Below are positions 1-64,000 of a stretch of 64,000 nt of DNA, one piece after another; position 1 is the stretch's first letter; every line of letters starts with the position of its first letter. The translations under genes were made by a program, and so were the position numbers. The notes beneath the pieces were generated by a model, which worked only from the letters and a program-made list of their open reading frames with translations, was not told where the DNA came from and made no database searches. Origin of the DNA: a virus; the IMG/VR virus record IMGVR_UViG_3300045988_113168; one strand, written 5' to 3'.

Positions 1-1
1 G

Positions 2-796
2 GTTGTTGACTCCGCTTCCATCCTCAAGATGACTGCTACCCAGGGCCTCACCGCCTTCTCGCAGAAGCGTGCCAAGGTTAAGGCTGCATCTCAGGGTCTG
101 ACCGGTGATGAAAAGGCAGTTAAGATTGAGGGTGCTGGCATGGAGCTCAAGGATTTCAATACTCTGAACTTCAAGGGTCAGTCTCTGATTTTGGATCTGA
201 ATGCATCTGGTGTGAACTACATCGTTGTTTGCCGAGAGAAGGACGAGAAGCATACTAAGGTTGTGAATGGTTCTATCGTAAGTGAGCCTACTGGTCGTAA
301 GATTCCTGATGGGTTTGCTGGTCAGGAGTACAACGTTGATACTGAGTTCCGCCTGTATTTTCAGGATGGTCAGCAGCTCGCTTTCTTCGATAAGGATCGT
401 ACCGGTATGCATAAGGGCGGTGAGGTCGTTGAGGATCTGACCCTGCTTGAGTATCAGGATATTATTTCTAGTAGCGCAAAGAATCGGGAGAACGTCATCA
501 AAAACGGCTTAAACGATGCTGTTAAGACTGAGGTTAAGCTGAGTATGCGTGACCTTGGTATCGAAAACGATGAGCCGGATGATGTTCCGGCAGATAAGAG
601 TTCCGATAGTAAAGAGCCTTCTATGGATGACATCAAGGCAAAGCTGAATGACCTGATTGCTTCCGCTTCTCCTATGAAGAAGAGTGCCGCACAGAAGGCT
701 GTTAAGGCGGCTGGCCTGTCTACCGCATTCCGTTCTATGACTGATATTGAGGAACTGAAGAAGGTTGCCGCAGTCATGGAGAAGGAACTGGCTTAA
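2..796 (+). CDS. AAA_24/Sak4-like recombination ATPase, 5' end cut by window edge
   Basis: The frame is open from nt 2 (VVDSASILK, a Walker-B-like hhhDS block). NYIVVCREKDE and VDTEFRLYF resemble AAA_24 family blocks. Lys/Asp-rich C-terminal tail. Confidence 0.5.
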   Translation, partial: VVDSASILKMTATQGLTAFSQKRAKVKAASQGLTGDEKAVKIEGAGMELKDFNTLNFKGQSLILDLNASGVNYIVVCREKDEKHTKVVNGSIVSEPTGRKIPDGFAGQEYNVDTEFRLYFQDGQQLAFFDKDRTGMHKGGEVVEDLTLLEYQDIISSSAKNRENVIKNGLNDAVKTEVKLSMRDLGIENDEPDDVPADKSSDSKEPSMDDIKAKLNDLIASASPMKKSAAQKAVKAAGLSTAFRSMTDIEELKKVAAVMEKELA

Positions 797-1488
797 TGGA
801 ACTAACCCGTAAATGCAAGATTTGCGGGAAGAATATTTTCATCGAGCGAGACCGTAGCACGTTTTTCTACGACAAGACGGGCTTTTGCCATAAAGATTGT
901 TTTGTAGAAAAAAAGAAAAATCAAAAACGCCCTTGGACAGATGACCTGCTAAGGGCATTTTTTGACAAAGCAAAACCCGCTACGGATAAAAAGGTCGATG
1001 ATCTTCTTTCCAAAAAGAGAGAACAAGACCACAATCGTGAGCTTGCACATATCAAACAGGAAGAAAAAAAGATTCTTTTCGACCATATTCGAGATACATA
1101 CGCCCCGGCGGTTGTTCCGGGTAGCTTCTACTCGAAACTTACGCAGTTGATTTCCGGGAATTATTACAAATATAGAGGTTCGATTCCTCCGCTAGAACTT
1201 TACGATATGTGGGTTCTAGCGAAACCCCGACTAGATAAAATAATTACCGAGAAAGAAGCAAAAGGTTTTGATATGAGTCAACGATGGAATTATGACTTGG
1301 CTGTTTTGCTGGCACAATATCCGAGTTATCTCGAACAAAAAGAGAGACAAGCTTCGATTCGTAGTGAATGCGAAAGTAAAACGAAGGAAAACCTGACGGA
1401 AACGGTACTGAAACGGATGAAAACAGTACCAAAACAGAGCAAAAACGAGAATGAAATTGATATAAATGCAATTCTCGATGAGATATAA
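796..1488 (+). CDS. hypothetical Zn-finger protein in the replication module
   Basis: ATG overlaps the upstream TAA (TAATG). N-terminal CKICG...CHKDC cysteine cluster. Packed between the ATPase and the helicase. Confidence 0.6.
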   Translation: MELTRKCKICGKNIFIERDRSTFFYDKTGFCHKDCFVEKKKNQKRPWTDDLLRAFFDKAKPATDKKVDDLLSKKREQDHNRELAHIKQEEKKILFDHIRDTYAPAVVPGSFYSKLTQLISGNYYKYRGSIPPLELYDMWVLAKPRLDKIITEKEAKGFDMSQRWNYDLAVLLAQYPSYLEQKERQASIRSECESKTKENLTETVLKRMKTVPKQSKNENEIDINAILDEI

Positions 1489-1509
1489 AAGCACGAGGGA
1501 GGTGGATGA

Positions 1510-3033
1510 GTGGAACTCATTTCAAATATCCCGAACGAAATTCTATTTGTCGGCGCAATTTACAAGCATCCTGACTATTTGGTCGAGTATGGGCATTATG
1601 TCAAGAGCAAGTACGATTTTGCCGATGAAGCAACAAAATTTTTCTACGATGCAGCGTTAATTATTTACGAAACTCGGACTCAAGAATTCAATAAAACATC
1701 TGTTTTAACGTTTATGGCTGAAGACGAGTCCAGATTGTCCCAATACAAGCGGCTGAAGGGCTGGTCAACCATTGAATACTACATGAGCCTTGCGAATGAC
1801 GATGACATCAAGGGATACTTCAATATCCTGAAGAAATATTCGCTACTTCGTGAGTATCAGAGAAACGGTTTTAACATTGAAGGAATCTTGAAGCATCGAC
1901 AGTTTGAAATGTTTGGCGCTCAGGACATTTACAAATTGATTCGTGGCAAGGCCGACAAGATCAATACGGTTATCATCACAAACGATGATGCTGAGATTTT
2001 GAATAATGGTCTGCTGCCAATGGTCAATGAACGTCTGAGCGTTCCTGATATGGGCTTGCCGTTCCAGTATCCTATCATGAATGATTTGTTTCGAGGATTG
2101 AAGCTGGGCACTGTGATGTTCAATGGTATGCCATCTAACGCTGGTAAGACTAGATACATGATGGCGATTGTTGCATACGTCACATTGGTTCAAAAGCAGA
2201 AAGCTCTTCTGCTTTTGAATGAGATGGATCTTGAGTCAGTCAGGTATTGCTTACTGGTCACCGCTATCAATAATCCCGAATTCCAAGAGTTGCATGGTCA
2301 TCGTTTCCATAAGGATGAGCGAGAGATCACTCTTGGAATGTACCGGGATGCAAATGGAAACTTCATCTTCCGAAAGCAAAACGAAGACGGGGAATACATA
2401 GAAAGCATTGATGAGTTCACCGCTCGTGTCTATGAGGAAAGCGAAGAGTATCGTAACGTACTTGATGTTTGCCGGTGGATTGAGAATGAATCACAGGGTT
2501 TGATTATCGCAAAGGATGTTTCTGCTGATTATAGTGATAAGTCCCTGCGATTTGAAATCCAGAAGGAAGCTCTCACTCAGGGGGTTAAGTATGTGTTCTA
2601 TGATACTCTAAAGAACGATATTGCATCTATTGGTGAATGGGCGGCATTCAAGGTCACGGCCACCGAGCTTGAAGAGATTGCGAAAAATCTAAAGATTTTT
2701 ATCTACGGTAGTATCCAGTTGGCTGAAAATGCCCATGAATATCTTCCTGATGAGCTGAATTCAAACAATATTGCTGAGTCAAAAATGATTAAGCATGTTG
2801 CTTGGACGATGGTTCTGTTCAAGGAGATTCCAAAAGACAAGTTCGTGAAATATCAATACATTTCTCATGACCCTGAGTGGGGTGGTGACTGTGCCCATCG
2901 GCTGAACCCAGATAAGCGGTATTACGTTGGAAACATCGACAAGAACCGTTTTGGTGAGAAAAAGAAAATCATGTTTGAAGTGAATTTGAACCAGAATGTC
3001 TGGAAAGAGGTCGGTGTCTGCACCAGAAAGTAA
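1510..3033 (+). CDS. DnaB-like replicative DNA helicase
   Basis: GTG start 7 nt after GGGAGGTGGA. N-terminal DnaB-type domain (EILFVGAIYKHPDY). Walker A GMPSNAGKT. RecA-like C-terminal domain. Confidence 0.85.
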   Translation: MELISNIPNEILFVGAIYKHPDYLVEYGHYVKSKYDFADEATKFFYDAALIIYETRTQEFNKTSVLTFMAEDESRLSQYKRLKGWSTIEYYMSLANDDDIKGYFNILKKYSLLREYQRNGFNIEGILKHRQFEMFGAQDIYKLIRGKADKINTVIITNDDAEILNNGLLPMVNERLSVPDMGLPFQYPIMNDLFRGLKLGTVMFNGMPSNAGKTRYMMAIVAYVTLVQKQKALLLLNEMDLESVRYCLLVTAINNPEFQELHGHRFHKDEREITLGMYRDANGNFIFRKQNEDGEYIESIDEFTARVYEESEEYRNVLDVCRWIENESQGLIIAKDVSADYSDKSLRFEIQKEALTQGVKYVFYDTLKNDIASIGEWAAFKVTATELEEIAKNLKIFIYGSIQLAENAHEYLPDELNSNNIAESKMIKHVAWTMVLFKEIPKDKFVKYQYISHDPEWGGDCAHRLNPDKRYYVGNIDKNRFGEKKKIMFEVNLNQNVWKEVGVCTRK

Positions 3034-3042
3034 GGAACTACA

Positions 3043-5786: not shown

Positions 5787-5787
5787 T

Positions 5788-6688: not shown

Positions 6689-7450
6689 ATGGTTTACATT
6701 ACAGGCGATATTCATGGTGACTTTAATCGGTTTTTAGAATTGGAAAAGTTTTGCCATGAACACAATCTTGGAAAGAATGACTGGATTGTCTGCCTTGGCG
6801 ATGTCGGTTTGAACTATTACGGCAAGGACGACCCTCGCGAATGGAGTATAAAAACTATCGCCGCAGATATTCCTGCAAATCTGTTTTGTATTCATGGCAA
6901 CCACGAGCGCCGCCCGTCTCGTAAGGATGGTTATAGGACAAAGGAAATCAGTGGAGATATTTGTGGTAATGTGTGGTATGACCCACATTATCCAAATCAG
7001 TATTTTGCTATTGATGGCGAAGTCTATCAAATTCTTGCTGATAGGGAAGTATTAAACTGTCTTGTTTGCGGCGGAGCCTATTCTGTAGATAAATATTATC
7101 GGTTGGAACGTGGATATAATTGGTTTCCTGATGAACAGCCGAGTGAGAAGACTAAGAAAAAGATCTGGAATATTACACACGATCCTCAAATCGATGATAT
7201 TGATGTTATGCTCACGCATACCTGTCCATTCCGGTTCATTCCAACTGGATTGTTTATTGGTGGTATTGACCAAAGCACAGTAGACCAGTCAACTGAAATA
7301 TTCTTTGATAATATATACGAATGCTATCCTAACGATTGTAAACCGTTCTGGTATTTTGGTCACTTCCATGGCAATAAATACACTGACGATTATGTAATGC
7401 TTTTTGATGATATTATTAAGTTTGGAGATAAAGTGAAGAGTGATGAGTGA
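6689..7450 (+). CDS. calcineurin-like metallophosphoesterase
   Basis: Motifs GDIHGD, GDVGLN and GNHE in canonical order. Confidence 0.85.
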   Translation: MVYITGDIHGDFNRFLELEKFCHEHNLGKNDWIVCLGDVGLNYYGKDDPREWSIKTIAADIPANLFCIHGNHERRPSRKDGYRTKEISGDICGNVWYDPHYPNQYFAIDGEVYQILADREVLNCLVCGGAYSVDKYYRLERGYNWFPDEQPSEKTKKKIWNITHDPQIDDIDVMLTHTCPFRFIPTGLFIGGIDQSTVDQSTEIFFDNIYECYPNDCKPFWYFGHFHGNKYTDDYVMLFDDIIKFGDKVKSDE

Positions 7451-30200: not shown

Positions 30201-30473
30201 ATGAATGTTATAAAGCATGGAACGCATCGAGCAAAAGATTCTGAAAATTTATATAAAGTGACTTGTAATTCTTGCGGGTGTGTATTTGAAGCTAAAAGAT
30301 CTGAATTTCATGTATGGCCTTTACCAGCACGACCTGTTAGCGAAACGGTAAAAAATTATGATAATACAGGGCGTCCGGCAGAAATACAATGTCCTGAGTG
30401 CAAATGCACTTGTGGAATTAGAATGAGATTGCTTGCAAGAGAATCTGTCTTTTTACACGCATATTGTAGGTGA
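30201..30473 (+). CDS. Zn-ribbon protein, tandem family member 1
   Basis: GGGAGG RBS. CNSCGC ... CPECKC. Confidence 0.5.
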   Translation: MNVIKHGTHRAKDSENLYKVTCNSCGCVFEAKRSEFHVWPLPARPVSETVKNYDNTGRPAEIQCPECKCTCGIRMRLLARESVFLHAYCR

Positions 30474-30477
30474 TAGT

Positions 30478-30696
30478 ATGAAAGCACATATTCGAGAAGA
30501 AAAGAAAACAACTCCATTAAAACTTGGTGAGGGAACATTACTTCAAGAGAAAGACGGCAAACTGTATAAGATTTGTGATACAGTAGAATATGATGATACG
30601 CATACCGACGATGAAGTTATCAAGGTTGCTTTATCTGAAGAAAATATGATTGTTGGATCGAACTTTTTAATGCATCGTTTGTGTTCACAGATTTAG
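30478..30696 (+). CDS. hypothetical protein; the only early gene ending in TAG
   Basis: The stop at 30694-30696 is TAG. It is followed by GTG, TAG, six sense codons and then TGA. Confidence 0.5.
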   Translation: MKAHIREEKKTTPLKLGEGTLLQEKDGKLYKICDTVEYDDTHTDDEVIKVALSEENMIVGSNFLMHRLCSQI

Positions 30697-30704
30697 GTGT
30701 AGAT

Positions 30705-30935
30705 ATGCATAAAACTGATAGTTTGAAAAATCCGGTAATCGTATTTCCATGTAAGAATTGCGGTTGCACAACTAAGATTCGAGTAGCCTCTTTTGAAAAT
30801 CCTGATTTGGATATTCCTGAGAGTAATGTGATTGCGTGCTATAGATGTAGAGCGGAAGTTGCTGGATCTGAGTTTATTTCTTGGAAAGAAGCAACTAAAA
30901 CTATTTTTACCGTGGAGGTGCCAGATGGCAATTAA
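30705..30935 (+). CDS. Zn-ribbon protein, tandem family member 2
   Basis: CKNCGC ... CYRC. Confidence 0.5.
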   Translation: MHKTDSLKNPVIVFPCKNCGCTTKIRVASFENPDLDIPESNVIACYRCRAEVAGSEFISWKEATKTIFTVEVPDGN

Positions 30936-34157: not shown

Positions 34158-34985
34158 ATGATTATTGACTGCAAATCTATCGCACAATATATCAAAAATA
34201 AAATCAAGAATATTATCGCAGAAGATGACTACGCTCCTGTTTTATATATTTATCAAGTGGGGAATAACCCTGCGTCCAATGCTTATATTCGCGGCAAGCT
34301 GCGTGACTGTGAAGAGGTGGGAATCGAAGCAGAGCTTATTAAATTGCCAGAAAATATCAATGAAGACGAATTAAACAATAAAATACTGGAAGATTATAAT
34401 TGGGAAGATGTGGACGGTATCATTGTCCAGCTCCCGCTGCCAAAACATATCGATCCCAAAAATATTTGTATTCCAGATGAACTTGATGTTGATGGCTTTA
34501 ATTCCACATCCAAATTTCAGCCATGTACTCCACTTGGTGTTATGAAGATTTTCGACTCCATCGGTTACGATCTGGATGGCAAGAATGTGCTTGTATGCGG
34601 TCAATCTGATATTGTTGGTCGTCCGCTGGTTGATATGCTGATTAAGCGCCACTGTAATGTGATCTCTGTGAACAGCAGCGGAAGTTTTATGAAATGCACG
34701 GCTCTTGCAATGGATATGGTCGATGTGATCATCTCTGCAGTCGGAAAACGTAATTTCATCACACCGCTTGGTCTTGATCGAGTAGAGGTCTGCATCGATG
34801 TTGGCATCAACTATGACGAAAACGGAAAGCAGCACGGTGATTGCGCTGACGCTGTTTATGAGATGGAGAATATCAAAGTTACACCTCGTATCGGCGGTGT
34901 TGGGCTTATGACACGTGCCATGCTACTTTATAATGTATGTGTGGCAAAGTACGGAGCAGTGAAGATGGAAGAGGTGATTGGATGA
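34158..34985 (+). CDS. folD: bifunctional methylene-THF dehydrogenase/cyclohydrolase FolD
   Basis: AAGGAGG RBS. QVGNNPASNAYIRGKLRDCEEVGI, GIIVQLPLPKHID, GQSDIVGRPL and PRIGGVGLMT match FolD blocks. Confidence 0.85.
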   Translation: MIIDCKSIAQYIKNKIKNIIAEDDYAPVLYIYQVGNNPASNAYIRGKLRDCEEVGIEAELIKLPENINEDELNNKILEDYNWEDVDGIIVQLPLPKHIDPKNICIPDELDVDGFNSTSKFQPCTPLGVMKIFDSIGYDLDGKNVLVCGQSDIVGRPLVDMLIKRHCNVISVNSSGSFMKCTALAMDMVDVIISAVGKRNFITPLGLDRVEVCIDVGINYDENGKQHGDCADAVYEMENIKVTPRIGGVGLMTRAMLLYNVCVAKYGAVKMEEVIG

Positions 34986-35176
34986 AAGAAGTCCCAATTT
35001 GGGAAAAGACGACTCTGACGTTAGATGAAGCGGCTGCTTACACGGGGATTGGGGTCTGCCGACTAAGAGCGATTACTGATGATGAAAACTGTCCATTGGT
35101 ACTTTGGGTGGGGAATAAACGTCTTATCAAACGTAAGGCTCTCGAAAAATATATAGATCAAACGTATTCTGTTTGA
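34982..35176 (+). CDS. xis: excisionase (Tn916-Xis/HTH_17-like)
   Basis: ATGA overlap with folD. LTLDEAAAYTGIGVCRLRAI helix-turn-helix. Immediately upstream of int. Confidence 0.7.
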   Translation: MKEVPIWEKTTLTLDEAAAYTGIGVCRLRAITDDENCPLVLWVGNKRLIKRKALEKYIDQTYSV

Positions 35177-35201
35177 AATATAGGCTCTGATGTGGTATAC
35201 T
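35173..35201 (+). promoter_or_regulatory. promoter upstream of int
   Basis: TTGAAA - 17 nt (ending TGG) - TATACT. The -10 sits inside an 11-bp inverted repeat, GCTCTGATGTG / CACACCAGAGC (35184-35220). Confidence 0.55.
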
Positions 35202-35249
35202 CATGGTGTCACACCAGAGCTTCTTATATAACGTAAGGAGTTCCGCATC

Positions 35250-36416
35250 ATGATAAGACGTAAAGATAATAATGGCAAAGTTTTAAAAGACGGCGAGAGC
35301 CAGAGAAAGGATGGGAGATACCAATATAGATGGACAAACAAACTTGGAAAACGCTCAATAATATACGCCACTTCACTTAAAGAATTGAGAGAAAAAGAAG
35401 CTGAAATCCAAGAAAAACTTAATTTGGGTACAACGTCTACTTCAAAAATCACAGTGTACCAATTAGCAAAAAGACATCTCGAAGAAACAAAACTTACTAT
35501 TAGGCCAAGCAGCTATAAAACAAAATCGCAGAATTTGAAAATCTTTCAGAATCACCTAATTGGGGAAATGAATGCAACTGATATTTTAGTGCGCGATGTA
35601 AAACAATTTGCACGAGAATTGGATAACGAAGGATATTGTTATACAACAATCAGAGATGTCATGTCTTTAGCTAGACCGGCATTTCAAGAAATGTTTGATG
35701 AGAATATAATTCCTAGAAATCCATTCGTTTTTAAATTAAATACAGTTGTCAAATGTGACTCAAAAGAAAAAGAAATATTAACAGAAGAGCAGTATCAAAA
35801 TCTGATCAAGTTCATGAAATCTAGTCGAGTATATAAAAGGCATGTTGGGATGGTGATGCTTTTGCACGAGACAGGACTTCGAGCAGGAGAATTATGCGGG
35901 CTAACAAAAAAGTCATTTGATTTTGATAACAACACTGTTACTATATCTCATCAGATGGTGTACGATGGAAAGAGCGGCGGGCTGTATTTAGCACCTACAA
36001 AAACAGAAAGTGGGATAAGGACTATCCCATTATCTAAAGACGCCATCATTGCTTTTGAAGAAGCGGTAAAACAACGTCCGATTGTAAAAGCAGAGAGAAT
36101 AATAGATGGGCAAGCCGACTTCTTGTTTATAGCAAAAACTGGAAGGCCCTATACGAATAAAAACCTTGTTAGAATTTTTGAAGGACTAATCAAAGCATAT
36201 AATAGTTGCCATGATGAACCATTGCCTGAAGTCACTGCCCACAGTATGCGCCACGAATATTGTACACGGCTTGTCAAAGCCAAGATGGATGTTAAATCGG
36301 TTCAATACCTCATGGGGCATTCGTCGCCCGATATAACCTTGAAAGTGTATACTCATATCTTAAAAGAAGAGACCGAAGCAGAGGCAATCAAACAGTTTAA
36401 TAGGATTGTTTCCTAA
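35250..36416 (+). CDS. int: tyrosine recombinase/integrase, Tn916-Int-like
   Basis: N-terminal RKDGRYQYRWTNKLGKRSIIYATSLKELREKE arm-binding domain. Catalytic R...HSMRHEY...LMGHSSPDITLKVYTH. Confidence 0.95.
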   Translation: MIRRKDNNGKVLKDGESQRKDGRYQYRWTNKLGKRSIIYATSLKELREKEAEIQEKLNLGTTSTSKITVYQLAKRHLEETKLTIRPSSYKTKSQNLKIFQNHLIGEMNATDILVRDVKQFARELDNEGYCYTTIRDVMSLARPAFQEMFDENIIPRNPFVFKLNTVVKCDSKEKEILTEEQYQNLIKFMKSSRVYKRHVGMVMLLHETGLRAGELCGLTKKSFDFDNNTVTISHQMVYDGKSGGLYLAPTKTESGIRTIPLSKDAIIAFEEAVKQRPIVKAERIIDGQADFLFIAKTGRPYTNKNLVRIFEGLIKAYNSCHDEPLPEVTAHSMRHEYCTRLVKAKMDVKSVQYLMGHSSPDITLKVYTHILKEETEAEAIKQFNRIVS

Positions 36417-36720
36417 TTATTTGACACCAATTTTGACACCAAATCTTCAAAAGATATATAGACTTACAGAGATTTGCATAGAGTCCATTTTGGAATGGCA
36501 AAAAACGACTTCGAAATAATGTCGCAATATCGATAAATATAGACTTATAGAGATTTGTATAGACCATCTTGAAAAAAAGTAGAAAGTAAGGTATAATATA
36601 CCTAATTTTGCTCAATGGTTGAAAAACATCGATATTACGACTAAAATCATCTATTTCGGAATCGTTTTACACCACTTTGACACCAATTTGAATTTTACAC
36701 CACTAGCACCGTAGTCGAAT
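36417..36720. other. attP-like recombination region with arm-type repeats
   Basis: Five direct copies of TT(T/G)ACACCA(A/C), at 36421, 36433, 36666, 36677 and 36695. A 28-bp direct repeat ATATAGACTTA(C/T)AGAGATTTG(C/T)ATAGA near 36456 and 36537. Adjacent to the 3' end of int. Confidence 0.55.
36569..36597 (+). promoter_or_regulatory. near-consensus promoter inside the att region
   Basis: TTGAAA - 17 nt - TATAAT. Confidence 0.55.
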
Positions 36721-36845
36721 CCGATTTTGAGTCTTAATCGTAAGAGTTCTGATGTGACACAGCAGCCCCGGCGTCCTAGTGACGCCATTACATAAGCAGC
36801 GTTAAAATTGAAAATCGCATTTGAACAACGATATATTCATGATGG

Positions 36846-36871
36846 GCGTGGGAGTAATCCTGCGCCTTTTC
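36846..36871 (+). terminator. rho-independent terminator
   Basis: GCGTGGGA-GTAA-TCCTGCGC (8 bp, GNRA loop), followed by CTTTTCTT. Confidence 0.55.
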
Positions 36872-36900
36872 TTGAATTCTTGTTATCCGTATGATACAAT
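36872..36900 (+). promoter_or_regulatory. promoter of the 3-gene accessory cassette
   Basis: TTGAAT - 17 nt (ending TGA) - TACAAT. The RBS AAGGAG and the ATG at 36923 follow. Confidence 0.6.
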
Positions 36901-36922
36901 TTATACAAAGGAGTGGGGCAAT

Positions 36923-37372
36923 ATGGACATTTATGAAGAACTGCATTCGCGCTATATTCAACTTTATGCTAGCGCCATGGATTTGAATAAAGAATATCAT
37001 ATGAAATTTGATTTGGTCATGAAAAAATATCAAAAAATATGGGATGATGGATTTAGTGTTTTTCCGGCTACAAATATGATGAATTTTATGGTTCCTTCAA
37101 AAAGGAAACCGGAAGATGAGGAGAAAGAGCTCTCGCTTCTTATGGAGTGGACTGCAGATAAAGTGTTTGATATTGTCGTCGAAAATTGGTTAAGCAAACT
37201 TACAAGAGAGCAAGTCGTTTTTATGTTAAACGCGATATCTGAACTCGATTATAATGCTCAGCTTTCTTTTGAAAAATCCCACTCAATCACTCCGAAACAA
37301 ATATTGAACGTTTGGAATAAAACGCACCAAGAAGCTGAAAATATTTACATGATGCCGGAGTTCGAATCATGA
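36923..37372 (+). CDS. hypothetical protein (accessory cassette gene 1)
   Basis: AAGGAG RBS. 149 aa. No recognisable motif. Confidence 0.6.
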   Translation: MDIYEELHSRYIQLYASAMDLNKEYHMKFDLVMKKYQKIWDDGFSVFPATNMMNFMVPSKRKPEDEEKELSLLMEWTADKVFDIVVENWLSKLTREQVVFMLNAISELDYNAQLSFEKSHSITPKQILNVWNKTHQEAENIYMMPEFES

Positions 37373-38403
37373 AAAAAGAAACGTATCTTCCGCTTGATAT
37401 TTTGAAAAAAATTACGGCGCATTACCCTAAAGCATGGGAGCAGATGGAAATGTTTCATAATGCAAACGGGGAACCAAATCTGGGAACGTGGCCTGAATGG
37501 TGCTACGCCCCTATGAGCGCTGCGTTGGCGGTGGCATCTCAAGGATATGATTTAAACAAGCTCCCTATTGATATAAGAATGGAGATAACATCTATAGCTC
37601 AGGCGATATTTGCGTTGGCCCCGTGGCGACTAAGTAAAGAGGTCTATGTTATTGACGAAGATTTAAAAGACCTTTTGTTTGAGCAGGACGGAGAACTCGA
37701 TGTCCCTAACGAAATATTATTGCAGCTTCCGTATCCGTGCTTTTATGTGGAACTTCCAAACACATATTATAGGGCAGATAAAATACATGGGTTCTTTGTG
37801 ACATTAGAATATGATGTTATCAATGGAGATAAAGAATTAAAACCGGTTTTTCTTACTGACAACGGAGATATATTCAGCTATTCCATTCATATTGGAGCAA
37901 AAACAATAGAAGAAAGCGTGGATATGCTTGATAAGCAGGCGCTTGAAAATACAAACGGAGATAAAGAACTGAAACGTTTGGCATTAAGAGCGATGCAGGA
38001 TTCAGCAGAAACAAAAATATTTCTAAAACAAATCCTTCAAGTAATATTATATATTCTTGCACAGAACGCAGAAATCACGCCAAGTTCTGAACAGTCTTTT
38101 ATCACCAAAAGAGGAAAAACACTCAAGGATAAATATTCTGAAATTCGAAAGTGGGATGTTGGCATTCGTGTTGGAGCTGCGATAAGACAGCAAAAAATAC
38201 GCGAGCAGTCTGAGTGGTCGGAACGCAATCAAAGCGGACATAATTCGCCACGTCCTCATATACGTCGCGGTCATTGGCATCATTTTTGGACAGGCCCAAA
38301 AACACAGCCCGAAGAACGAAAACTTATCTTAAAGTGGTTGTCACCCATGACCGTTGCCGCAAATCCAGATGACACACCAATTGTACTTCATAAGGTAAAG
38401 TAA
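37369..38403 (+). CDS. hypothetical protein (accessory cassette gene 2) with C-terminal PRPHIRRGHWHHFWTGP motif
   Basis: ATGA overlap with gene 1. 344 aa with a basic His/Trp-rich C-terminal block. Confidence 0.65.
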   Translation: MKKETYLPLDILKKITAHYPKAWEQMEMFHNANGEPNLGTWPEWCYAPMSAALAVASQGYDLNKLPIDIRMEITSIAQAIFALAPWRLSKEVYVIDEDLKDLLFEQDGELDVPNEILLQLPYPCFYVELPNTYYRADKIHGFFVTLEYDVINGDKELKPVFLTDNGDIFSYSIHIGAKTIEESVDMLDKQALENTNGDKELKRLALRAMQDSAETKIFLKQILQVILYILAQNAEITPSSEQSFITKRGKTLKDKYSEIRKWDVGIRVGAAIRQQKIREQSEWSERNQSGHNSPRPHIRRGHWHHFWTGPKTQPEERKLILKWLSPMTVAANPDDTPIVLHKVK

Positions 38404-38677: not shown

Positions 38678-38912
38678 ATATCAGCTCGATATCGCTTGGC
38701 TCAACATAGCCTGACACATTTACTGAGATTGGATACTTACCAATACGACTTTCAAGATTTGTCACTCGATACCGCCCATTGACGAGTTTTCCATCGTAGA
38801 TATACCACTCACCCCGGCGCTTCATTCCGCAGTGAGTCTGGCTGTTTGAAAATAAAATTCCGTCTAATTTAATTTTATCTCCTGCACGCAATGTCTTCTG
38901 GTTGTCCGCCAT
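38676..38912 (-). CDS. small SH3-like cell-wall-binding domain protein, translationally coupled to the endolysin
   Basis: The start ATG shares one nt with the endolysin TGA (TGATG). GDKIKL...GEWYIYDG..VNGRYRVTN...VSGYV resembles lysin C-terminal SH3-type domains. Confidence 0.55.
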   Translation of the reverse strand: MADNQKTLRAGDKIKLDGILFSNSQTHCGMKRRGEWYIYDGKLVNGRYRVTNLESRIGKYPISVNVSGYVEPSDIELI

Positions 38913-39559
38913 CAAAACGAACCCCATGTAGCTGGCCCACAGATACCGTCAGCACTCAAGCCATGCGCCTTTTGCCATTCCATCAGTTTTGTCTTAGTGC
39001 CTACTCCAAAGATACCGTCCGCTTTTACGCCTAGATGTCTCTGCAGCACGGTAACTGTATACGAGATGCCGCCAGTGCAATCTTTCGCGCCCTGACGAAT
39101 CGTAGGCATGATTTTACTCACTGATACATAAGCAGTTCCAGCCTTACTGATCCAGCGAGACTTCCAGCTCCGCACATCAACATGAACAAAGCCTCCTGTT
39201 AGCTGTACTCGACTGTAATAGCCGATGCCGCCCCGCTTCTGGAAATAAGACATGGAGGCCAAATATAGCGCAATCCGAATTGGGTCAACACCTTTGATGG
39301 TAACATCCGCCGCCGTACCCAAACAATGCTGACTGCGAGGACTGCCGCCGATGGAAATATTGTAAGAAGGAGAGCGGTAGCCAGAGTTGATATGGACAGG
39401 CTTACCAAAATGAGCCCGCACCTGTTCAAGAATGTAGACAAGTTCTGTATCGATTAGAACAGTGTCACTGTGGTCAGAGCAGGCGAACTCATAGACGGAA
39501 AAATGAGCTGACACCTTTTTGTTCCAATCTTTCTTCATTGAGTATGTATTTACTGCCAT
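38912..39559 (-). CDS. endolysin: peptidase M15 plus PG_binding_1 domain
   Basis: SGYRSPSYN...SQHCLGTAADV...FVHVD (Zn peptidase M15). C-terminal LQRHLGVKADGIFG...GLSADGICGPATW. GAGGTG RBS. Confidence 0.85.
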   Translation of the reverse strand: MAVNTYSMKKDWNKKVSAHFSVYEFACSDHSDTVLIDTELVYILEQVRAHFGKPVHINSGYRSPSYNISIGGSPRSQHCLGTAADVTIKGVDPIRIALYLASMSYFQKRGGIGYYSRVQLTGGFVHVDVRSWKSRWISKAGTAYVSVSKIMPTIRQGAKDCTGGISYTVTVLQRHLGVKADGIFGVGTKTKLMEWQKAHGLSADGICGPATWGSF

Positions 39560-39569
39560 GCGGCGCACC

Positions 39570-39890
39570 TCAATTCTTCTTCAACTCATTCTCGATTTTC
39601 TCATTCTGAATGTCCAGCTCCTTGACGGCAGCCTCGATCATCATGTCGATAGTCGGAGTAATCTTGACGCCCATCTTTTCAAGAGCAGCGATAACATACT
39701 TCTTCTTGTCAGCTTTCTTGATAACACCAGTTGCGCCGACCTTCTCAGCAGCGCGAACGGTCATCCGGACAAGCTTATAGACGCCAATTTTTTTGAGATA
39801 GGGGATACCATAGACCATAAAAGCAGTACCAGCACCTGCGACGACTAGCTGGGCAATAGTAGCAACAACCTGATTGAAAAAGTCCATCAT
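39570..39890 (-). CDS. holin (LL-H-like)
   Basis: AGGAGG RBS. N-terminal TM helix. ...ITPTIDMMIEAAVKEL resembles the LL-H holin family. Directly upstream of the endolysin. Confidence 0.6.
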   Translation of the reverse strand: MMDFFNQVVATIAQLVVAGAGTAFMVYGIPYLKKIGVYKLVRMTVRAAEKVGATGVIKKADKKKYVIAALEKMGVKITPTIDMMIEAAVKELDIQNEKIENELKKN

Positions 39891-39955
39891 AATATACCTC
39901 CTGATAAAAATAAAAGACCCCGAACACATCGTTCGAGGTCATGAATCACGTGATC

Positions 39956-40459
39956 TTATTCTTTTGGTTTCAAAAAACCATTAGTGCGTAGCATTTCGTC
40001 ATATACGCGCCCCACGTTCTTGATGGCGAAGGGCATCTTGTTGTTCTTGTAGTTGGAATGAGTCTTACAATAATCTTCATACTTCCCAATGACATCAAGG
40101 ATATCATCAAAGTCCTCTTCGGTGTGGCCGAGCCCGCGAACAAGCTCATTATTGAAGCGCAGCACCTGACTACGATAACCGTCAGCTTTGGTTTCTTCAC
40201 CCTTTTCGATGTGGTTATCTAGCTTTTTACGAGTCTCTTCTTGCTCGGAGCGAATATCTTTGAGCTCGGATTTAGTTTCCTTGATCTCGTTCATCACACC
40301 GGCATTCAGGGCGTTTCCAATGTGAGTGGCTACCTAAGACCACGGATTGATCTCGATTTTAGAGACTTGTATCACTGACATAACAACGGCGATCAATCCG
40401 CCGCTCCCGGCCATCACTGAGCCGAGATGATTTAGGAAAAAATTCAATAATTCGTCCAT
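39956..40459 (-). CDS. lysis-cassette membrane protein containing an in-frame TAG (codon 42)
   Basis: ATG at 40459 after a GAGGTG RBS. A 41-codon TM segment, then TAG at 40334-40336, then the same frame continues into the 113-aa ORF 39956..40297. That ORF has no RBS of its own. Confidence 0.6.
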
Positions 40460-56167: not shown

Positions 56168-56275
56168 GACGCTAATCCTAAAATACGCGATAATATTCTT
56201 ATAATTTACATTCCAAGATGATTTATTCTAAGTTCCAACATTTCGTGTCTTGTTAAGCATTGCAGAAATCGATTT

Positions 56276-57361
56276 CTATAGGTTTTTCATAAAAGAACTA
56301 AGAGAGGAAAAACGATCCAATGCTTCATTATAGGTATATTCTTTTCCGTCGGAATAATATTTAATGCTTGTTTCCGTATAGCCTAAGAATTTTTGGTTTT
56401 TGTCATATGCTATAATTCTAGCAATATATCCATCAGCCGATATTTCGACTGACTTTAAATCACTTGCCGGGATTAGATTAGTGCTCATTGAGATGTTATC
56501 TGTAGTAAATACTCCACTTTGACTAACATAGCCATTTGACCAGTTGGGCAATAAGAGCAAATCGTTTGATAAATCAACTTGTTTTTCATAAATAGTCATC
56601 CATGTGGTATCTAAAGGCTTTTTGCGCTTAAACCGAAGATGAGTAATGTCACTCTTCACATTGGCTGGATATTTTGCAAAAAGGTTAATACAACCACGCC
56701 ATTTATCGTTTCCTGCATCAAAAATTACTCCATCAATTTGTTCACTATATTTCGTCTTAAACTGTTTGAACCCAGTATCAAGCTGGTAACCTCCAATTGA
56801 TTCTGCTTTAGCACGAACATAATAAACGCTATTATTGTCAAGGCCATCAACATAAAAACTCTTCATAGAGTCACGGTGATAAAAACATTGTGACTTTTTG
56901 ATTTCGTTTTTATTAGAGTCATAAAGATAATATTCATATCTATTGATAACTTCACCCTCAGCCGTTTTGTAGGTATAATCACAATCAAAAGAGTATGAAG
57001 GTGTAAAGATAATTTTAGAAGAGGAAATGTCGGAGAATGCCCTGAATTTAATGGAAGGTTTCTCGTGACAATAAAACAGAATCTTGTCACTATATTCGCT
57101 GAAAGTGTTCGTACCAGTTAATCTGCAACGAATCATGATATAATAAGGGTCATGCTGATTTACAAGGACCCCACCTTTAATTACAAATTGTCGAGCTAGG
57201 CCAGTTCCAGTGGGAGCTACTGTGCCAAATTTATAAACAGTGCTATCTTTTGACTTGAAGACGATATAGGCAACTAAGTCAATATCGGCATATGCTCCGA
57301 ACTGGAATGAAGCGTCTTCGTTAGCACTAAATACATTGATTTTTGATAGAATTGGTTTCAC
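56276..57361 (-). CDS. tail protein with beta-sandwich repeats; ends in TAG
   Basis: GTG start after a GGAGGTG RBS. The terminator codon at 56276-56278 is TAG. Confidence 0.6.
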   Translation of the reverse strand: MKPILSKINVFSANEDASFQFGAYADIDLVAYIVFKSKDSTVYKFGTVAPTGTGLARQFVIKGGVLVNQHDPYYIMIRCRLTGTNTFSEYSDKILFYCHEKPSIKFRAFSDISSSKIIFTPSYSFDCDYTYKTAEGEVINRYEYYLYDSNKNEIKKSQCFYHRDSMKSFYVDGLDNNSVYYVRAKAESIGGYQLDTGFKQFKTKYSEQIDGVIFDAGNDKWRGCINLFAKYPANVKSDITHLRFKRKKPLDTTWMTIYEKQVDLSNDLLLLPNWSNGYVSQSGVFTTDNISMSTNLIPASDLKSVEISADGYIARIIAYDKNQKFLGYTETSIKYYSDGKEYTYNEALDRFSSLSSFMKNL

Positions 57362-58675: not shown

Positions 58676-58692
58676 TTTCTTTCACCTCCAAG

Positions 58693-58737: not shown

Positions 58738-58759
58738 ATTGTGTTTTTATATCCTCTAT

Positions 58760-61700
58760 TTAATTTCGCTTACTCATTTTTTGAGAAAGTTTGTTGGGAA
58801 GATTGCGGACAATTTCGTTTGCCAAATCTTCTGCTCCACCAACAGGGTTCTGAATAACAATATCTCCAATGGAAATATCAATATTAGAACCGCCGTTAGA
58901 AGATAGTGAAGCCGTTCCGTACTTAGACATCTGATCCTGGAACCAAGCATCTGGATTGCCACCCATCTCGAAGAGACGAGAAGTAATATCTGCAGGAACG
59001 ACTCCATCGCCGGTTTCAAGATAAGTATAACGTCCAGCTTGCGGTTGACGAACCAGAAGCTCAGAACCTTGCTCGTCAACATTATACTTGCCGGATTTTT
59101 GAATGCTTCGAGAACCAGAAGCTTTTTTACCAGTGATTTTTTCTTTAATTTTGTCAACAAAACTCTTTTTCTCAGAAGAACTACTGGAACTATTAGAAGA
59201 TTTGCTAGACGAAGTAGAAGAACTCTTGTCTTTATCCCGAGAACTACTAGAAGAACTACTCTTACCCGTAACTGCATTATAAGCACTCTGAACGCCGTTC
59301 TTAATACTACTAACAATATTAGAACCAGTCTTCCATGCAGAAGAATTAGTGATTTTATCTTTGGTGGAACTTATAGCATTGTTTACCTTACTTCCTACCG
59401 TAGAGTTGTCCCATTTCTCTTTGACATTAGAAGCAATTTCTTTAGTCGTAGTTACTAATCCACTGACAGCGTTGTTTACTTTGCCGCCGAGCCAAGAATT
59501 GTTCCATGCGTTTTTTGCACTACTAACTGCGTTGCTTCCAACTTCATAGATGTCTTTACCAAGCTCTAACAAGCTCTTACCGCCAGAAACAGTCGTGGGA
59601 GTACCACTGCCGCCACCAGAAGACAAACTACTCGAAGATGTGGAACTATTGCTGGTAGTATTTTTGGTAGTAGGAGTTGTCTGACCTTTATCGTACAGAT
59701 CGTTTCCAATCGTACCAAAACTATCACGAATAGAAGAAATAGTGTTATCGCAACTCTTAGTGATGCTATCATAAGCTTTCCCCATGACCCACGTAATATT
59801 TTCACTAAGATCGATAGCACCGGGCTCAACATTCTTCCAGGCATTTGCCATTTGGTCAGGGAGAACTTTATTCAAAGTCTCTTCACTCTTGGATTCGATT
59901 GTACTATATGCGCCATTGATTGTGCTTTGAGTATTATCGGCCAAGTCACGGACACCGCTTTCGGCCATGCCCCAGCTGCTATCGAAACAAGCTCGCATAT
60001 CATAGAGCATCTTTTCGGTATCACCGGTGGTATCAGCCCAAGCTTTAGAAATAGTAGACTCCGTTTTAGCACTCAGGTTGCGGATACCACCACCACACTG
60101 ATTCCAACTATTCTTCATCTTACTAGAGATGGAATCCATTGCATTAGAACAGCTATCTTTCATAGAATTGAAAGAGTTCGCCATTTTATTAGCGTTAGAC
60201 TCACTCATCTCGTCAGTCATAGATGCCATTTTGTTAAAACCAGCAGTATATGTGTTTTGCATTGACTGGAACAGTTTTTTCGTGATACCCTCGACCTGTT
60301 CTGCGTTCAGTGCGGTATTGTCTCCGATAGCGGCATAGGTATCTTTAACCAGCTTCTGCATATTGCTATACATTTCTTTACTGGTTGCATCAATCTGATC
60401 GTCGCTCAAACCAACCTCTTTTGCCATATCCTTCCATGTCTTCTCAAACTGAGATTTCATAGAATCAAGCTGGGCAAGTGTGTTGGATTTGGAAGAAGAA
60501 ATGAGATTGTCAAGAGGATTACCTGTACTACTATTACCAAAGCCAAAGAATTTACTAATTGAATCCTTTATTAAGCTTCCGCTATTTATTAAGCCTCCGC
60601 CGTTTATTACGCTTCCGATATTCTTTATCTTATCAAACCATTTCGAAATCGAAGAGTTTTGACCAGAAGAGTTTATAGTGGACTTGGTTTTATCTGCGAA
60701 TGTAGTAAACTTTAAATTCAACCCGCCTAGAGTCTTAACGCTCTTTGAAAGCAGCGTAGGAATAAGGCCGGTCTTATTATCATCACGAATATCGTCAACG
60801 GCCTCAACTACTTCATCAACTTTAGAGTCAATGGCAGTGTTTTTGCGAGCTTGAGGCGCAGAAGTAATAGTCGTATATCCGCTGGAAGCAGCAGAGTTGC
60901 GAGAGCTAGGTATTTTAGAGGCTACGTTCTTGACCCAGCCGATAGGATTCTTGGCGATTCCCATTAAAGTCGCGGTTTGTTTTGCGGGGATAACTCCGTC
61001 ACCTTTTTCGAGTTGAGTCAGGCGTCCCTTCTCGGGGGAGCGAACGATTATCTCTTCGCCTTCCTCATCGACATTATAAGTACCAGCCTTTTCGACTTTC
61101 TTAGTACCTTTAGCAAATCCAAACAGTTTACCAACCCAGCGAATTGGAGCAGTCACAATGTGTCCGATTGTACCAAGTAAGCCGCGTTTCTTTGTACCAT
61201 CGCTAGATGTGCCACCAAACAAGAATTTTCCAATGCCACTAACGGCTTTAGTGATCGTTTTGCCAATACTCTTAACTATTTTACCAAGAGTTTTGCCAAT
61301 ACCAGTTACAGCTTTCCCGATAGTGGAACCGATTTTTGCGAGACCGTTTGTAAATGAGCCGCCACCGATTGCACTGACAGCAAGCGTGCCGCCAAGGAGA
61401 ATCGTACCGATGACAGGAATATGACTGACTGCAGCCGCAATAGTTCCAGCGACACCAGTACCACCTGCAGTACCTACAGCGGCAGTTACCGTTCGACCAA
61501 TTCCTTTGAAAATACCAGCAATACCAGAAAACAGCTTGGTTCCACCCAATGTAGTACCGATGCCACCGAAAATTGAGCCAAGCCCACCAACCGCTTTTTG
61601 GGCAATAGATGCGACTCCACTGAATCCCTTCTGGAAGATTGACATTAGACCGCCACTGCCAGAGAAAATTCCCTGTGCTGCAGAGACTACAGTCGTTTTT

Positions 61701-64000
61701 ACATTGCCAAGAGATTTTACAATAGCCTGTCCTAGTTTAGAAATCTAACTAGTGCTCTCTCCAAGGAACCCTTTTGCTGCAGCGTACTTATTAGAGCCTC
61801 CAACGCCAAGGAAGCTCTTTCCTGCGTCCAAGAGGCGTCCCCAGAATCCTTTACCAGAACTCTTATCAGAGAACGTACCAACCGCACGCTGCAGACGATT
61901 CTACAGACCCGTAATTCCACCGTTCTGAGTAGAACCATTCAGATTGCCAAGCACGTCTCCGAGCTTAGTCAGTGTATCAATCAGTGTCTCAAGCTTGGTG
62001 ATAACATTAGAAACATTAGTTGCTCGCTGGACCGCCTTCATATTGGAGACAACAGAGGCCATAAATCCATCGTAGTGACCTTCCATCTCTGCAAAAGTCA
62101 TAGCCTCGAACTGAGACGTATATTTCAGTTTCTTCTGATAGTCGTCCCAGCTTGTGCCAATAAGGTTAGTGGCTTCCTGAACCTTATCTTTGAGCTTGTT
62201 CAGCCGGTCGATTTCTTCCTGTTTCTTATACTCACGGCGTTTGCTGTTGAGGTCACTCTGAGCGTCACGAACTGTACTTGCATCAGCCTCCCACTCGTAA
62301 CCATTCTCGCCATAGACGCGAGTGGTCTTATTGGCCTGTGCTTTCGCGAGAGCATCCTCGGCTTTTTGCAGTTCAATCGCACGCTCTTGAGCATCATTCT
62401 GCTCATTCAGCGCGTCGATACGTTTGTCGATAACATCAATCCATGCATCACCCTGAATCTTCAGGTCGTTGGACTTTTTATCATTGAGCTTATTGAAAAT
62501 ATCAAGCAGTGAAGAGAAAAGGTCTTTAAGGTTAGAGATGACAGACTGTAACTTTTGAGCCTCAGTACCCATCCCCTTCATATGGTCGGTAACATCCCAA
62601 GTACCATTTGCTACCTTTTCAAGAATTTCGGCGTAACGATCTCCGAGGTCAGTACCCTTATATGTTTCTGCAAGGACTTTTAGCTGCTCAATGTAAAGGT
62701 CTCTAAAGGCTTCCTTGTTAAAGACGAGTTTCCCGCCTTCTTCTTTAAGGCAAGCCGCATACTTTGGATTAAGAGACATATACTTCTGGATGGTATCTTG
62801 ACTTAATTCTCCATAAGCGTTATACTCATCTACAATATCAAACAAATCGTTGAATGCACTCTGGTAGTCATCCATTGAATTATTGATTTTGCTAAGAGTA
62901 CTTCCGATTCCGTTAATATAATCCTCAATGCTGAGTGCATTGCTTGCAATCTTATTCTTTGCATCTTCAAAGCCCTTGGCAAGATATGTTCCAGCGGCTC
63001 CGCCAGTCTCCTTACAAGCTGCAATCATCTTGTCGAGACTATCAAGGAACATATCCTTAAAAGCGTCGCTGTTGTAATCAATATCTCCAGTCTCGGGATT
63101 CAATGCCCCAGCGTACTTGTCATTCGTAAACAAGTCTGTGTTATCATATAGGTCACGAATTGCCTGATACTTTTTCTCAACATCGTCAGAATCTAGCAGT
63201 CCAAACGGATTGTCAATCTTGTTTTTGCTAACATCGGACAGCCCAGAGAATGCGGATTTTATAGCGTCTGTCTTTTCTTTGGCATCTGCCATCGCGGTGC
63301 CGTAGCCCTTGATGGCATCAGTTAACTGCTCAAAAGAAATGGTTTCGGAATCGACACTAGAGTTCAACCAGTCAAGAATCTTCTTCATCTCGCCAGCAGA
63401 CTTGCCACCATCATTAGCTGCATTCGCTTCCTCAAGCTGCGCTCTGACAAAAGTGCGGAATTTTGCGGTATTAAGTTCAAGTTTTCCATTTTGCTCAGTT
63501 AAGCAAGCAGTAAACTTATCATCAACACCGATTAACGACTTCATGGTGTCTGCACTAATATAGCCATATTGGTTATATTCTTTCATCGCTTTTGTTAAGG
63601 TATCAAATGCGGATGCAATATCAGATACAGACTTCGCGGTAGATTTATTGTTCTTGTTGGTCTTATTTGTCGGGAACCCATTAAGCTGATTTGTTAGTTT
63701 TTGTCCACCCCTTAGAGCAGCGTTCATATTGGTGTACAACAGAGAAAGCTGAGTATTTGTGCGATTCGTGATTTCCTCTAGCTTTGCAGGATCTACACCG
63801 CGTTCACCTGCTTTTTCGACTTCGTTCGCAAACTCTTGAGCCGCGCTATATGTAGCGGTTGCCGCAGTAGCATTTTTCAAAGCGGGGAGAAGATTCTCAA
63901 GAGCAGTCTTTTCGGCCTTGGTTTTCTCTTTTAGGTTATCAGTGCTTTCAGCTGTGTCATCGGCAGTAAGGTTTGCAACCTCATGTTGTGCATTAGAAAG
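58760..64000 (-). CDS. tail tape-measure protein, 5' end off-window, containing two in-frame TAG codons
   Basis: A single frame is open from 64000 to 58760 apart from TAG at 61901-61903 and 61745-61747. Helical N-terminal half, Gly/Lys IGK repeats, a Ser-rich tract, and the duplicated motif YNVDE.G.E..VR.P..GR.T.LE.GDGV.PA. Confidence 0.85.

Follow-up and report, generated by a model that had tools for sequence, protein, structure and literature searches.

In-frame TAG codons in late genes of an SPbeta-like gut phage lineage and their probable decoding as tryptophan by a phage-encoded suppressor tRNA

Gene organization of the window

The DNA considered here, a stretch of 64,000 nucleotides from IMG/VR virus record IMGVR_UViG_3300045988_113168 (hereafter the window, meaning this whole stretch), belongs to a phage in which several late genes contain in-frame TAG codons, and the present analysis addresses the decoding of these codons. 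The genes of the window are arranged in two blocks. Those of the + strand, from position 1 to about 38,620, form an early block involved in replication and nucleotide metabolism, whose Pfam matches include a DnaE-type polymerase, a RecD2-like helicase, a ligase, ThyX, NrdD, NrdG, a dUTPase, FolD and a Tn916-type Xis and integrase. Those of the - strand, from 64,000 down to 38,676, form a late block that encodes the tape measure protein, tail proteins, a 2257-residue fibre-like protein and, at its end, the holin and the endolysin. The curated set comprises 58 early and 16 late genes, 74 in total.

Five in-frame TAG codons in three late genes

Five TAG codons, all on the - strand, lie in frame within three late genes, and reading them as sense codons fuses pairs or triplets of open reading frames (ORFs) that share the same frame:

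58760..64000, - strand: tape measure gene, running past the right end of the window; a single frame without TAA or TGA, with two TAGs
61901-61903, - strand: first TAG, tape measure codon 700, counted from the window edge
61745-61747, - strand: second TAG, tape measure codon 752, in a variable Gly-rich segment
55505..57361, - strand: gene of a 618-residue tail protein, with two TAGs; PHROG 27355 matches its C-terminal half
56276-56278, - strand: third TAG, tail protein codon 362
56228-56230, - strand: fourth TAG, tail protein codon 378
39956..40459, - strand: gene of a 167-residue protein with a hydrophobic N-terminal segment, directly upstream of the holin gene; PHROG 37604
40334-40336, - strand: fifth TAG, codon 42 of the 167-residue protein, in the motif NPWS[TAG]

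Under genetic code 11, the tape measure gene is called as two products of 1232 and 961 residues. The PHROG tape measure match extends from residue 627 to residue 1327 of the 1706-residue ORF, covering both TAG sites, and the same ORF is uninterrupted in the related loci L016, L014 and L021. Codon 700 (61903) corresponds to an aromatic or hydrophobic position, occupied in relatives by TAG (19), TTC encoding Phe (17), AAG (3) and TGG, ATG and GCA (1 each). At codon 752 (61747), relatives carry TAG (5), GAG (9-10) and ATA or ATT (21).

The tail protein gene is likewise split by code 11, into 361 residues and 220 or 251 residues, while single-chain homologues of 452-706 residues span both halves and the ORF is continuous in L014-L016. 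All of the 13 close relatives carry TAG at codon 362 (56278); as distant homologues have a variable linker there, this site is uninformative about the ancestral residue. Codon 378 (56230) corresponds to a conserved Trp, encoded by TGG in nine relatives, some of them only 37% identical, and replaced by TAG in seven; one homologue (P0346) has Phe.

Once fused, the ORF of the 167-residue protein matches PHROG 37604 in two stretches, the reported one covering positions 72-168 of 168, and its 104 homologues are mostly 160-167 residues long. In the family, the column of codon 42 contains W (51), A (10), Q (8), R (8) and F (5), and on this alignment the ancestral residue is the Trp of an NPWSW motif. 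In many close relatives (among homologues P0001-P0104), this motif appears as NPQSW, NPWSQ or NPWSR. As the passage from Trp to Gln requires two nucleotide changes via TAG, these variants look like fossils of TAG codons later fixed as CAG.

All three interrupted genes are thus found as single ORFs in relatives or distant homologues. Furthermore, the TAGs of the window recur with identical flanking sequences in independent assemblies of other samples. Splitting of the genes at the five sites by introns or inteins was considered and rejected, the frame being continuous and the codon alternating with sense codons in relatives.

Stop-codon usage

A raw greedy ORF call gave 45 TAA, 38 TGA and 6 TAG terminators. 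Curation, which removed spurious small or antisense ORFs and fused those split by TAG, left 39 TAA, 34 TGA and a single TAG for the 74 genes: 30 TAA, 27 TGA and 1 TAG in the early genes, and 9 TAA, 7 TGA and no TAG in the late ones. TAG makes up 19% of the stop trinucleotides in all frames of the window and 14.4% of the terminators in distantly related SPbeta-like prophage loci from Lachnospiraceae and Paenibacillus genomes; the probability of finding at most one TAG in 74 genes is 2e-6 against the former baseline and 1.4e-4 against the latter. The share of TAG terminators is also low in the phage family as a whole (1.2-2.7%), versus the 14.4% of the distant prophage or host loci.

The only TAG terminator left after curation is the following:

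30694-30696, + strand: terminator of the early gene 30433-30696

This codon is followed by GTG, a second TAG (30700-30702), six sense codons and a TGA (30724-30726), so that readthrough would add 10 residues. It lies within the AGGTG ribosome-binding site of the following gene (ATG at 30705), and this overlap may explain why it was never replaced.

The in-frame TAGs are restricted to late genes. Indeed, TAG and TGG number 5 and 107 in the late genes versus 0 and 191 in the early genes (Fisher p = 0.0065), that is, TAG accounts for 5 of the 112 Trp-type codons of the late genes and for none of the 191 of the early genes. Five TAGs in about 8,200 late codons (about 4.5% of the late Trp-type codons) nevertheless represent a very low density.

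A preliminary description of the window, made before the present analysis, had already pointed out the near-absence of TAG terminators, the restriction of five internal TAGs to late genes and the unusual sparseness of this form of recoding, all of which are borne out by these counts; its account of the sequence context of the 30694 TAG is exact. It had also listed 56276-56278 both as a possible readthrough site and as an exception among gene terminators. This codon is not a terminator but one of the five in-frame TAGs.

The phage, its family and its probable host

The window is 100.000% identical, over 15,241 and 11,488 nucleotides, to European Nucleotide Archive (ENA) contig ZHAN15-1 scaffold_68 (137,766 bp), and the coordinates are those of a circular genome of about 137.7 kb. 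Considerably more than a hundred related contigs, of 125-150 kb, are present in IMG/VR. The late genes of these relatives match the Pfam families YonB, YonD, YonG, YonJ, YonK, YomU and YomW and include a YonO-type RdRP-family polymerase. By gene content, the family is SPbeta-like, an assignment that rests on the late regions of relatives, the genome of the window itself being covered there only up to locus L002.

Among GenBank phages, no close relative was found: megablast returned only a 317-bp match, and protein identities reach 41% with MT835573 and about 27% with Enterocloster phages. The nearest prophage capsid proteins (42-57% identity) come from Robinsoniella, Lachnospiraceae A4, Acetatifactor, Kineothrix and Paenibacillus; none of these distant prophages has a tRNA with anticodon CUA. 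The capsid matches in Lachnospiraceae and Paenibacillus suggest a clostridial host, so that the phages of this family probably infect gut Clostridia, most plausibly Lachnospiraceae.

The family shares with SPbeta and its relatives a genome of about 125-150 kb, the Yon and Yom structural families, a YonO-type polymerase encoded ahead of the late genes, a tyrosine recombinase and numerous mobile introns. It differs from them by its hosts, which are probably gut Lachnospiraceae. We are not aware of any description of stop-codon recoding in SPbeta-like phages.

A suppressor tRNA in related phages

The window contains no tRNA gene according to ARAGORN and a covariance model, and the Pfam matches of its called genes include no release factor or aminoacyl-tRNA synthetase, as the preliminary description had stated. 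No suppressor tRNA was found in L002-L005 or L006-L016, and the 10 kb upstream of the YonO gene carry no tRNA in 80 loci.

Two tRNA clusters are known in these phages. Cluster 1, located in the same genome 5-6.5 kb to the left of the window, encodes Leu-CAA, Leu-UAA, Pro-UGG, Gln-UUG, Leu-UAG, an odd 'His-AUG', Gly-UCC and Met-CAU but no tRNA with anticodon CUA, even when relaxed ARAGORN settings and Rfam are used. Directly upstream of its eight tRNA genes lies a gene with AAA_33, Metallophos and T4-RNA-ligase-1 domains, that is, of the Pnkp/Rnl type involved in tRNA repair:

L017 1237-4849, same genome, 5-8 kb to the left of window position 1: tRNA-repair gene and cluster 1

This association suggests a counter-measure to host anticodon nucleases.

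Cluster 2 is found in relatives between yonJ-like and yonG-like genes, about 7.5-8.5 kb upstream of the capsid gene. ARAGORN detects there a tRNA with anticodon CUA, hereafter tRNA(CUA), in 31 of 80 loci; as this program misses several variants with a slightly non-canonical T loop, pattern and covariance-model searches were added and brought the number to 81 loci. The sequence follows the pattern GCGCC...CUCUAAA...GGGCGUGCCA. In the cloverleaf of nine variants, 97.9% of the positions expected to pair do so, and compensatory changes affect 13 of its 21 base pairs, among them every one of the ten that form the anticodon and T stems. Almost no variation is seen in the acceptor stem, at G73 or in the anticodon loop CUCUAAA.

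The same slot of cluster 2 is occupied by a tRNA-Trp(CCA) in six loci centred on the major capsid protein gene and in 11 of the 80 loci centred on the YonO gene. This tRNA has in common with tRNA(CUA) the acceptor stem GCGCCC...GGACGU and G73, and its loop is CUCCAAA. Every CUA variant is closest to the phage tRNA-Trp(CCA), with 65-77% identity versus 49-63% with other phage tRNAs and 48-58% with Gln tRNAs. The shared slot, acceptor stem and G73, together with this closest identity, indicate that the suppressor is a C35U derivative of tRNA-Trp.

The ARAGORN label of these genes is 'tRNA-Pyl', a label given from the CUA anticodon alone, and this is the only element in favour of pyrrolysine as the amino acid inserted at TAG. 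Such a reading is extremely improbable: the tRNA is an ordinary cloverleaf with a normal 5-bp anticodon stem, a D loop containing GG and a Trp-type acceptor stem with G73, the called genes of the loci listed have no PylS or PylBCD-type Pfam match, and TAG aligns with Trp (see below).

Co-occurrence of tRNA(CUA) and in-frame TAG codons

The in-frame TAGs of relatives were counted by aligning reference late proteins to every locus covering cluster 2 and the head-tail block. This approach was preferred to greedy calling with TAG as a sense codon, which gave false 'recoded genes' (antisense ORFs and ORFs of the tRNA region). At least one in-frame TAG was found in 69 of the 81 loci with tRNA(CUA), in none of the six loci with the CCA allele and in 3 of the 26 loci with neither (Fisher p = 3e-14, a value that overstates the evidence since the loci are related to each other). 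The three exceptions are the following:

L179, without tRNA: TAG at a Gln column
L324, without tRNA: TAG at a Glu column
L193, tRNA(CUA) cut off just past the anticodon: one TAG left, at a Trp column

The same association holds for the tail genes. TAGs in the tape measure gene occur in 8 of the 22 contigs linked to a CUA tRNA versus none of the six linked contigs without it. Eight IMG/VR contigs possess a tail module of the window type, in which codon 700 of the tape measure gene and codon 362 of the tail protein gene are invariably TAG, and all six of those whose tRNA slot can be read carry tRNA(CUA). In the family, TAGs affect 17 head-tail columns, versus a single early-side gene with credible sites; indeed, about 600,000 aligned residues of early genes contain only singleton TAGs, apart from one 164-residue gene with TAGs at Trp.

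These data bear on the possibility that TAGs are real stops, the affected genes being split, pseudogenised or wrongly assembled, without any recoding. Code-11 gene callers do split these genes, TGG to TAG is the classical nonsense transition, and a handful of TAGs that occur in one locus only, at columns of Gln, Glu or Lys (two of these TAGs being in loci without tRNA), resemble nonsense mutations or errors. This explanation is nonetheless very improbable, considering that TAGs with identical context come from independent assemblies of different samples, that essential genes (terminase, tape measure, tail) are affected and that in-frame coding continues for hundreds of codons beyond the TAGs; it would also leave aside the purge of TAG terminators and the co-occurrence with a conserved tRNA(CUA) that undergoes compensatory changes.

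The part of the genome of the window that is covered directly or by proxy (about 103 kb: window, L002, L017 and L461) contains no CUA tRNA. The closest proxy of its head block, L464 (99.9% identical to L002 over a 929-nucleotide overlap), carries tRNA(CUA), and we infer that the genome of the window probably does so as well. A genome devoid of its own suppressor has also to be considered, in which TAGs would be read by a host suppressor, by near-cognate tRNAs such as the Gln(UUG), Leu(CAA) and Leu(UAA) of cluster 1 or by the tRNA of a co-infecting relative. It would fit the result over the 103 kb covered, the existence of two related contigs without the tRNA (L363 and L219) and the presence of UAG near-cognates in cluster 1. 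We regard it as unlikely: the TAGs of the tail module accompany tRNA(CUA) in every relative where both can be checked, CCA-allele and tRNA-less loci have TAGs in only 0 of 6 and 3 of 26 cases, the 103 kb do not include the known tRNA slot, and cluster 1, being also present in relatives free of TAG, fails to predict TAGs.

The amino acid inserted at TAG

Among the 17 head-tail columns with TAG, 12 are otherwise TGG, eleven of them exclusively and the twelfth, in a variable 811-residue protein, mainly. None of these 12 columns contains a CAG or a CAA across about 100 loci each. The best populated examples are:

terminase W63: TGG 80, TAG 34
341-residue protein W69: TGG 85, TAG 19
341-residue protein W89: TGG 81, TAG 23
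245-residue protein W66: TGG 75, TAG 29

In the genes of the tape measure and tail proteins, a further five TAG columns correspond to Trp, and two to aromatic residues. Overall, about 19 of the 33 credible TAG columns are Trp columns, versus 8% expected from codons one step away from TAG (p = 1e-14), and the ratio of Trp to Gln columns is 19:3, versus 40% expected from transitions alone (p = 1e-5). The occurrence of TAG at invariant TGG columns, without any interchange with CAG or CAA, is the pattern expected if TAG and TGG are synonymous. From this pattern and from the parentage of the tRNA, we infer that tRNA(CUA) is probably charged with Trp.

The second tape-measure-like protein (PhageMin_Tail) found in L002 1-778 and L322 18394-20829, of 811 residues and in some relatives of 1051 residues, is encoded within the tail gene block, upstream of the tape measure gene of the window, by a gene that is a TAG hot spot, at columns 190 and 361.

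The main alternative for the amino acid is the standard code 15, in which tRNA(CUA) would be charged with Gln and TAG would mean Gln, as in crAss, Lak and phAss phages or with the Trp-derived suppressors of E. coli. This was the assignment proposed in the preliminary description, which had also taken TAG as a sense codon in late genes and had suggested looking for a suppressor tRNA outside the window. The last two proposals gain support from gene continuity, from the recurrence of TAGs in relatives and from the tRNA(CUA) of 81 related loci; the Gln assignment is not borne out, TAGs being aligned with invariant TGG codons and the tRNA being of Trp origin. In favour of code 15, no reassignment of TAG other than to Gln has been reported in phages, U35 favours recognition by glutaminyl-tRNA synthetase, the closest homologue of the 167-residue protein has CAG at the TAG column, and one tape measure column is mostly Gln (Q 49, TAG 2). 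Yet code 15 would imply, at eleven TGG/TAG-only columns and one mainly TGG column, repeated Trp-to-Gln replacements of invariant Trp residues that never drifted from TAG to CAG or CAA. The tRNA is not Gln-like either, being 65-77% identical to phage tRNA-Trp versus 48-58% to Gln tRNAs, and the two clear single-locus TAGs at head-tail Gln columns come from one locus without the tRNA (L179) and one with it (L240). Decoding as Gln therefore seems improbable.

A proposed UAG-to-Trp decoding and its weighing

The interpretation favoured here is that a lineage of circular, about 137.7-kb SPbeta-like gut phages decodes UAG as Trp by means of a phage-encoded amber suppressor derived from tRNA-Trp, to which we would give a probability of roughly 0.7. 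The change of the tRNA-Trp anticodon from CCA to CUA (C35U) would have generated the suppressor, whose gene would lie in cluster 2, at the head of the late block (terminase, head and tail genes), some 26 kb to the right of the window. The tRNA(CUA), presumably charged by the tryptophanyl-tRNA synthetase (TrpRS) of the host, would then compete with release factor 1 (RF1) at UAG, so that the few UAGs of late genes would be translated as Trp, allowing the synthesis of complete tape measure, tail, terminase and other proteins. As TAG has nearly disappeared as a terminator from the whole genome, suppression would lead to few C-terminal extensions. In late genes, TGG and TAG would act as near-synonymous codons toggling between strains, and lineages with the CCA allele or without the tRNA would stay free of in-frame TAGs, in line with the 0 of 6 and 3 of 26 loci mentioned above. 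More broadly, a natural UAG-to-Trp code appears reasonably likely to exist in a widespread SPbeta-like phage family of the human gut, polymorphic and dependent on a one-nucleotide variant of tRNA-Trp, at a sparse and reversible stage of reassignment in which TAG terminators have already been purged.

Several observations weigh against this interpretation. Three of the five TAGs of the window do not fall on a conserved Trp, position 61747 being Glu or Ile in relatives, 61903 mostly Phe and 56278 uninformative. At the fifth TAG, the closest homologue of the 167-residue protein (P0001, 99% identical) has a Gln (CAG); such a Gln in the nearest homologue at 40336 is what a path from TGG through TAG to CAG would be expected to leave behind. 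Twelve loci with tRNA(CUA) show no TAG in the stretch read. The coverage of the genome of the window leaves out about 35 kb, including the cluster-2 slot, and its second-closest proxy, L219 (99.5% over 846 nucleotides), lacks the tRNA. L363 (137,758 bp) has neither a CUA tRNA nor TAGs in its head genes, and is probably not the same strain as the genome of the window. Relatives without suppressor have TAG terminators that are just as rare, so that their depletion is no simple consequence of the tRNA; the purge of terminators seems to be a trait of the family that preceded the tRNA or outlasted it. Finally, in E. coli, Gln is the amino acid mostly loaded onto a tRNA-Trp whose anticodon is CUA.

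A possible role of TAG in delaying late translation would be compatible with the restriction of TAGs to late genes; the suppressor gene heads the late block and is not located in an early operon. The patchy distribution of TGG and TAG is compatible with near-neutral drift under suppression.

Comparison with known recoding systems

In phages whose code differs from that of their host, only TAG to Gln and TGA to Trp have been observed (Borges et al., bioRxiv 10.1101/2021.08.26.457843). The reported cases of recoding in phages comprise TAG to Gln, TGA to Trp and, where the phage shares the code of its host, TGA to Gly. Phage phAss-1 uses code 15, and phAss genomes have 37-41 interrupted ORFs (PMC10607447); annotation surveys likewise use code 15. 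The present family shares many features with the recoded gut phages (crAss-like, Lak, Jade, Agate, Garnet, Topaz, phAss-1), namely in-frame stops in late structural or lysis genes, a phage-encoded suppressor tRNA, depletion of the recoded stop as terminator, early genes that fit the standard code and coexistence of related standard-code and recoded strains. However, these phages read TAG as Gln or TGA as Trp, whereas in the present family TAG aligns with Trp and the tRNA derives from tRNA-Trp. The density is also far lower (1-5 TAGs per region read versus 37-41 interrupted ORFs in phAss), and no release factor 2 or synthetase gene was seen in the regions read.

The assignment of TAG to Trp has a precedent in NCBI table 32, the code of Balanophoraceae plastids. 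To our knowledge, it is the only natural code in which UAG means Trp. The two systems share this meaning of UAG, but table 32 concerns a plant plastid whose reduced genome has an extreme AT content and in which the reassignment is complete, whereas the use of TAG in the present phages is sparse, polymorphic, restricted to late genes and associated with a dedicated tRNA(CUA) allele that alternates with tRNA(CCA). A full-text literature search for TAG or UAG as Trp returned nothing on phages and only one mention of 'UAG to Trp', in organelles of holoparasitic plants.

Laboratory suppressors offer another comparison, su7 of E. coli being a Trp-derived amber suppressor. In these suppressors also, a single C35U change makes tRNA-Trp read UAG. 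They are largely mischarged with Gln in E. coli, while the comparative pattern described here points to Trp being inserted or tolerated; furthermore, the tRNA(CUA) of the present phages occurs naturally, on phage genomes, and six diverged variants of it have a conserved acceptor stem. Engineered tRNA-Trp(CUA) pairs are also available (PMC2965240). Thus, the class of mechanism is known, but the pairing of codon and amino acid, the origin of the tRNA, the phage lineage and the sparse, polymorphic use differ from the reported cases.

If TAG does mean Trp in these phages, this would be a new code for viruses and for prokaryote-associated systems, and would show that a C35U tRNA can be charged in vivo by the TrpRS of a host. 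The question also matters for annotation: in these abundant gut phages, code 11 breaks up the genes of the terminase, tape measure and tail proteins, and code 15 would, if Trp is correct, misplace a residue at each site. On/off alleles of the tRNA with matching presence or absence of TAG would constitute a rare natural series for the start of a reassignment, and suggest an order of events that can be tested, with terminator purge, then gain of the tRNA, then near-neutral TGG/TAG drift. The family also lends itself to asking whether late translation is gated by sparse amber codons, or whether these codons form a barrier to recombination or compatibility; a polymorphic code of this kind would provide a mechanism of modular incompatibility among phages that otherwise recombine. 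Lastly, a compact natural amber-suppressing Trp tRNA from phages of Firmicutes could be useful for genetic code expansion.

Other features of the window and of related phages

The two lysis genes located downstream of the gene of the 167-residue protein contain no TAG:

39570-39929, - strand: holin gene; PHROG holin match
38912-39568, - strand: endolysin gene; PHROG endolysin match, Pfam Peptidase_M15 and PG_binding_1

Adjoining these convergent lysis genes, the end of the early block (window 34158-38403) groups a FolD-like gene, the Tn916-type Xis and integrase (35250-36416) and the gene of an AcrVA2-like protein (37369-38403). This stretch might represent either a module for integration or a mobile element that has inserted here. 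A tyrosine recombinase of 329 residues is also encoded within the tail gene block, upstream of the tape measure gene of the window.

Separately from the TAG interruptions, essential genes are split in many relatives by mobile-intron-like insertions that carry homing endonuclease genes. The targets are the terminase gene (LAGLIDADG or GIY-YIG endonucleases), the major capsid protein gene (DUF723) and the gene of the DnaE-type polymerase. Insertions of this type are located as follows:

L322 3027-6170: mobile-intron-like insertion
L323 10001-12582: mobile-intron-like insertion
L469 3011-6019: mobile-intron-like insertion
L018 11841-15190: mobile-intron-like insertion

Various non-canonical tRNA-like genes were also encountered (L017 4194-4267 and 4677-4745; L363 6134-6213 and 6438-6545). 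The peculiarities observed include an 8-bp acceptor stem with a UGAUGAA loop, a weak candidate with a 4-bp anticodon stem (Rfam, 32 bits), a 'Ser(ACU)' call with an 11-nucleotide anticodon loop, AAACUGAUCAA, and, in the slot of the Lys and CUA tRNAs, a 107-nucleotide element that ARAGORN and Rfam do not recognise despite a perfect acceptor stem and T arm.

Directly downstream of tRNA cluster 2, L363 contains two tandem matches to the Rfam abiF RNA, at 6871-6907 (30.5 bits) and 6917-6953 (23.9 bits), both below the gathering score of 37. This abiF-like element may mimic an antitoxin RNA. In L193, the element is fused, through a deletion, to the 5' half of tRNA(CUA).

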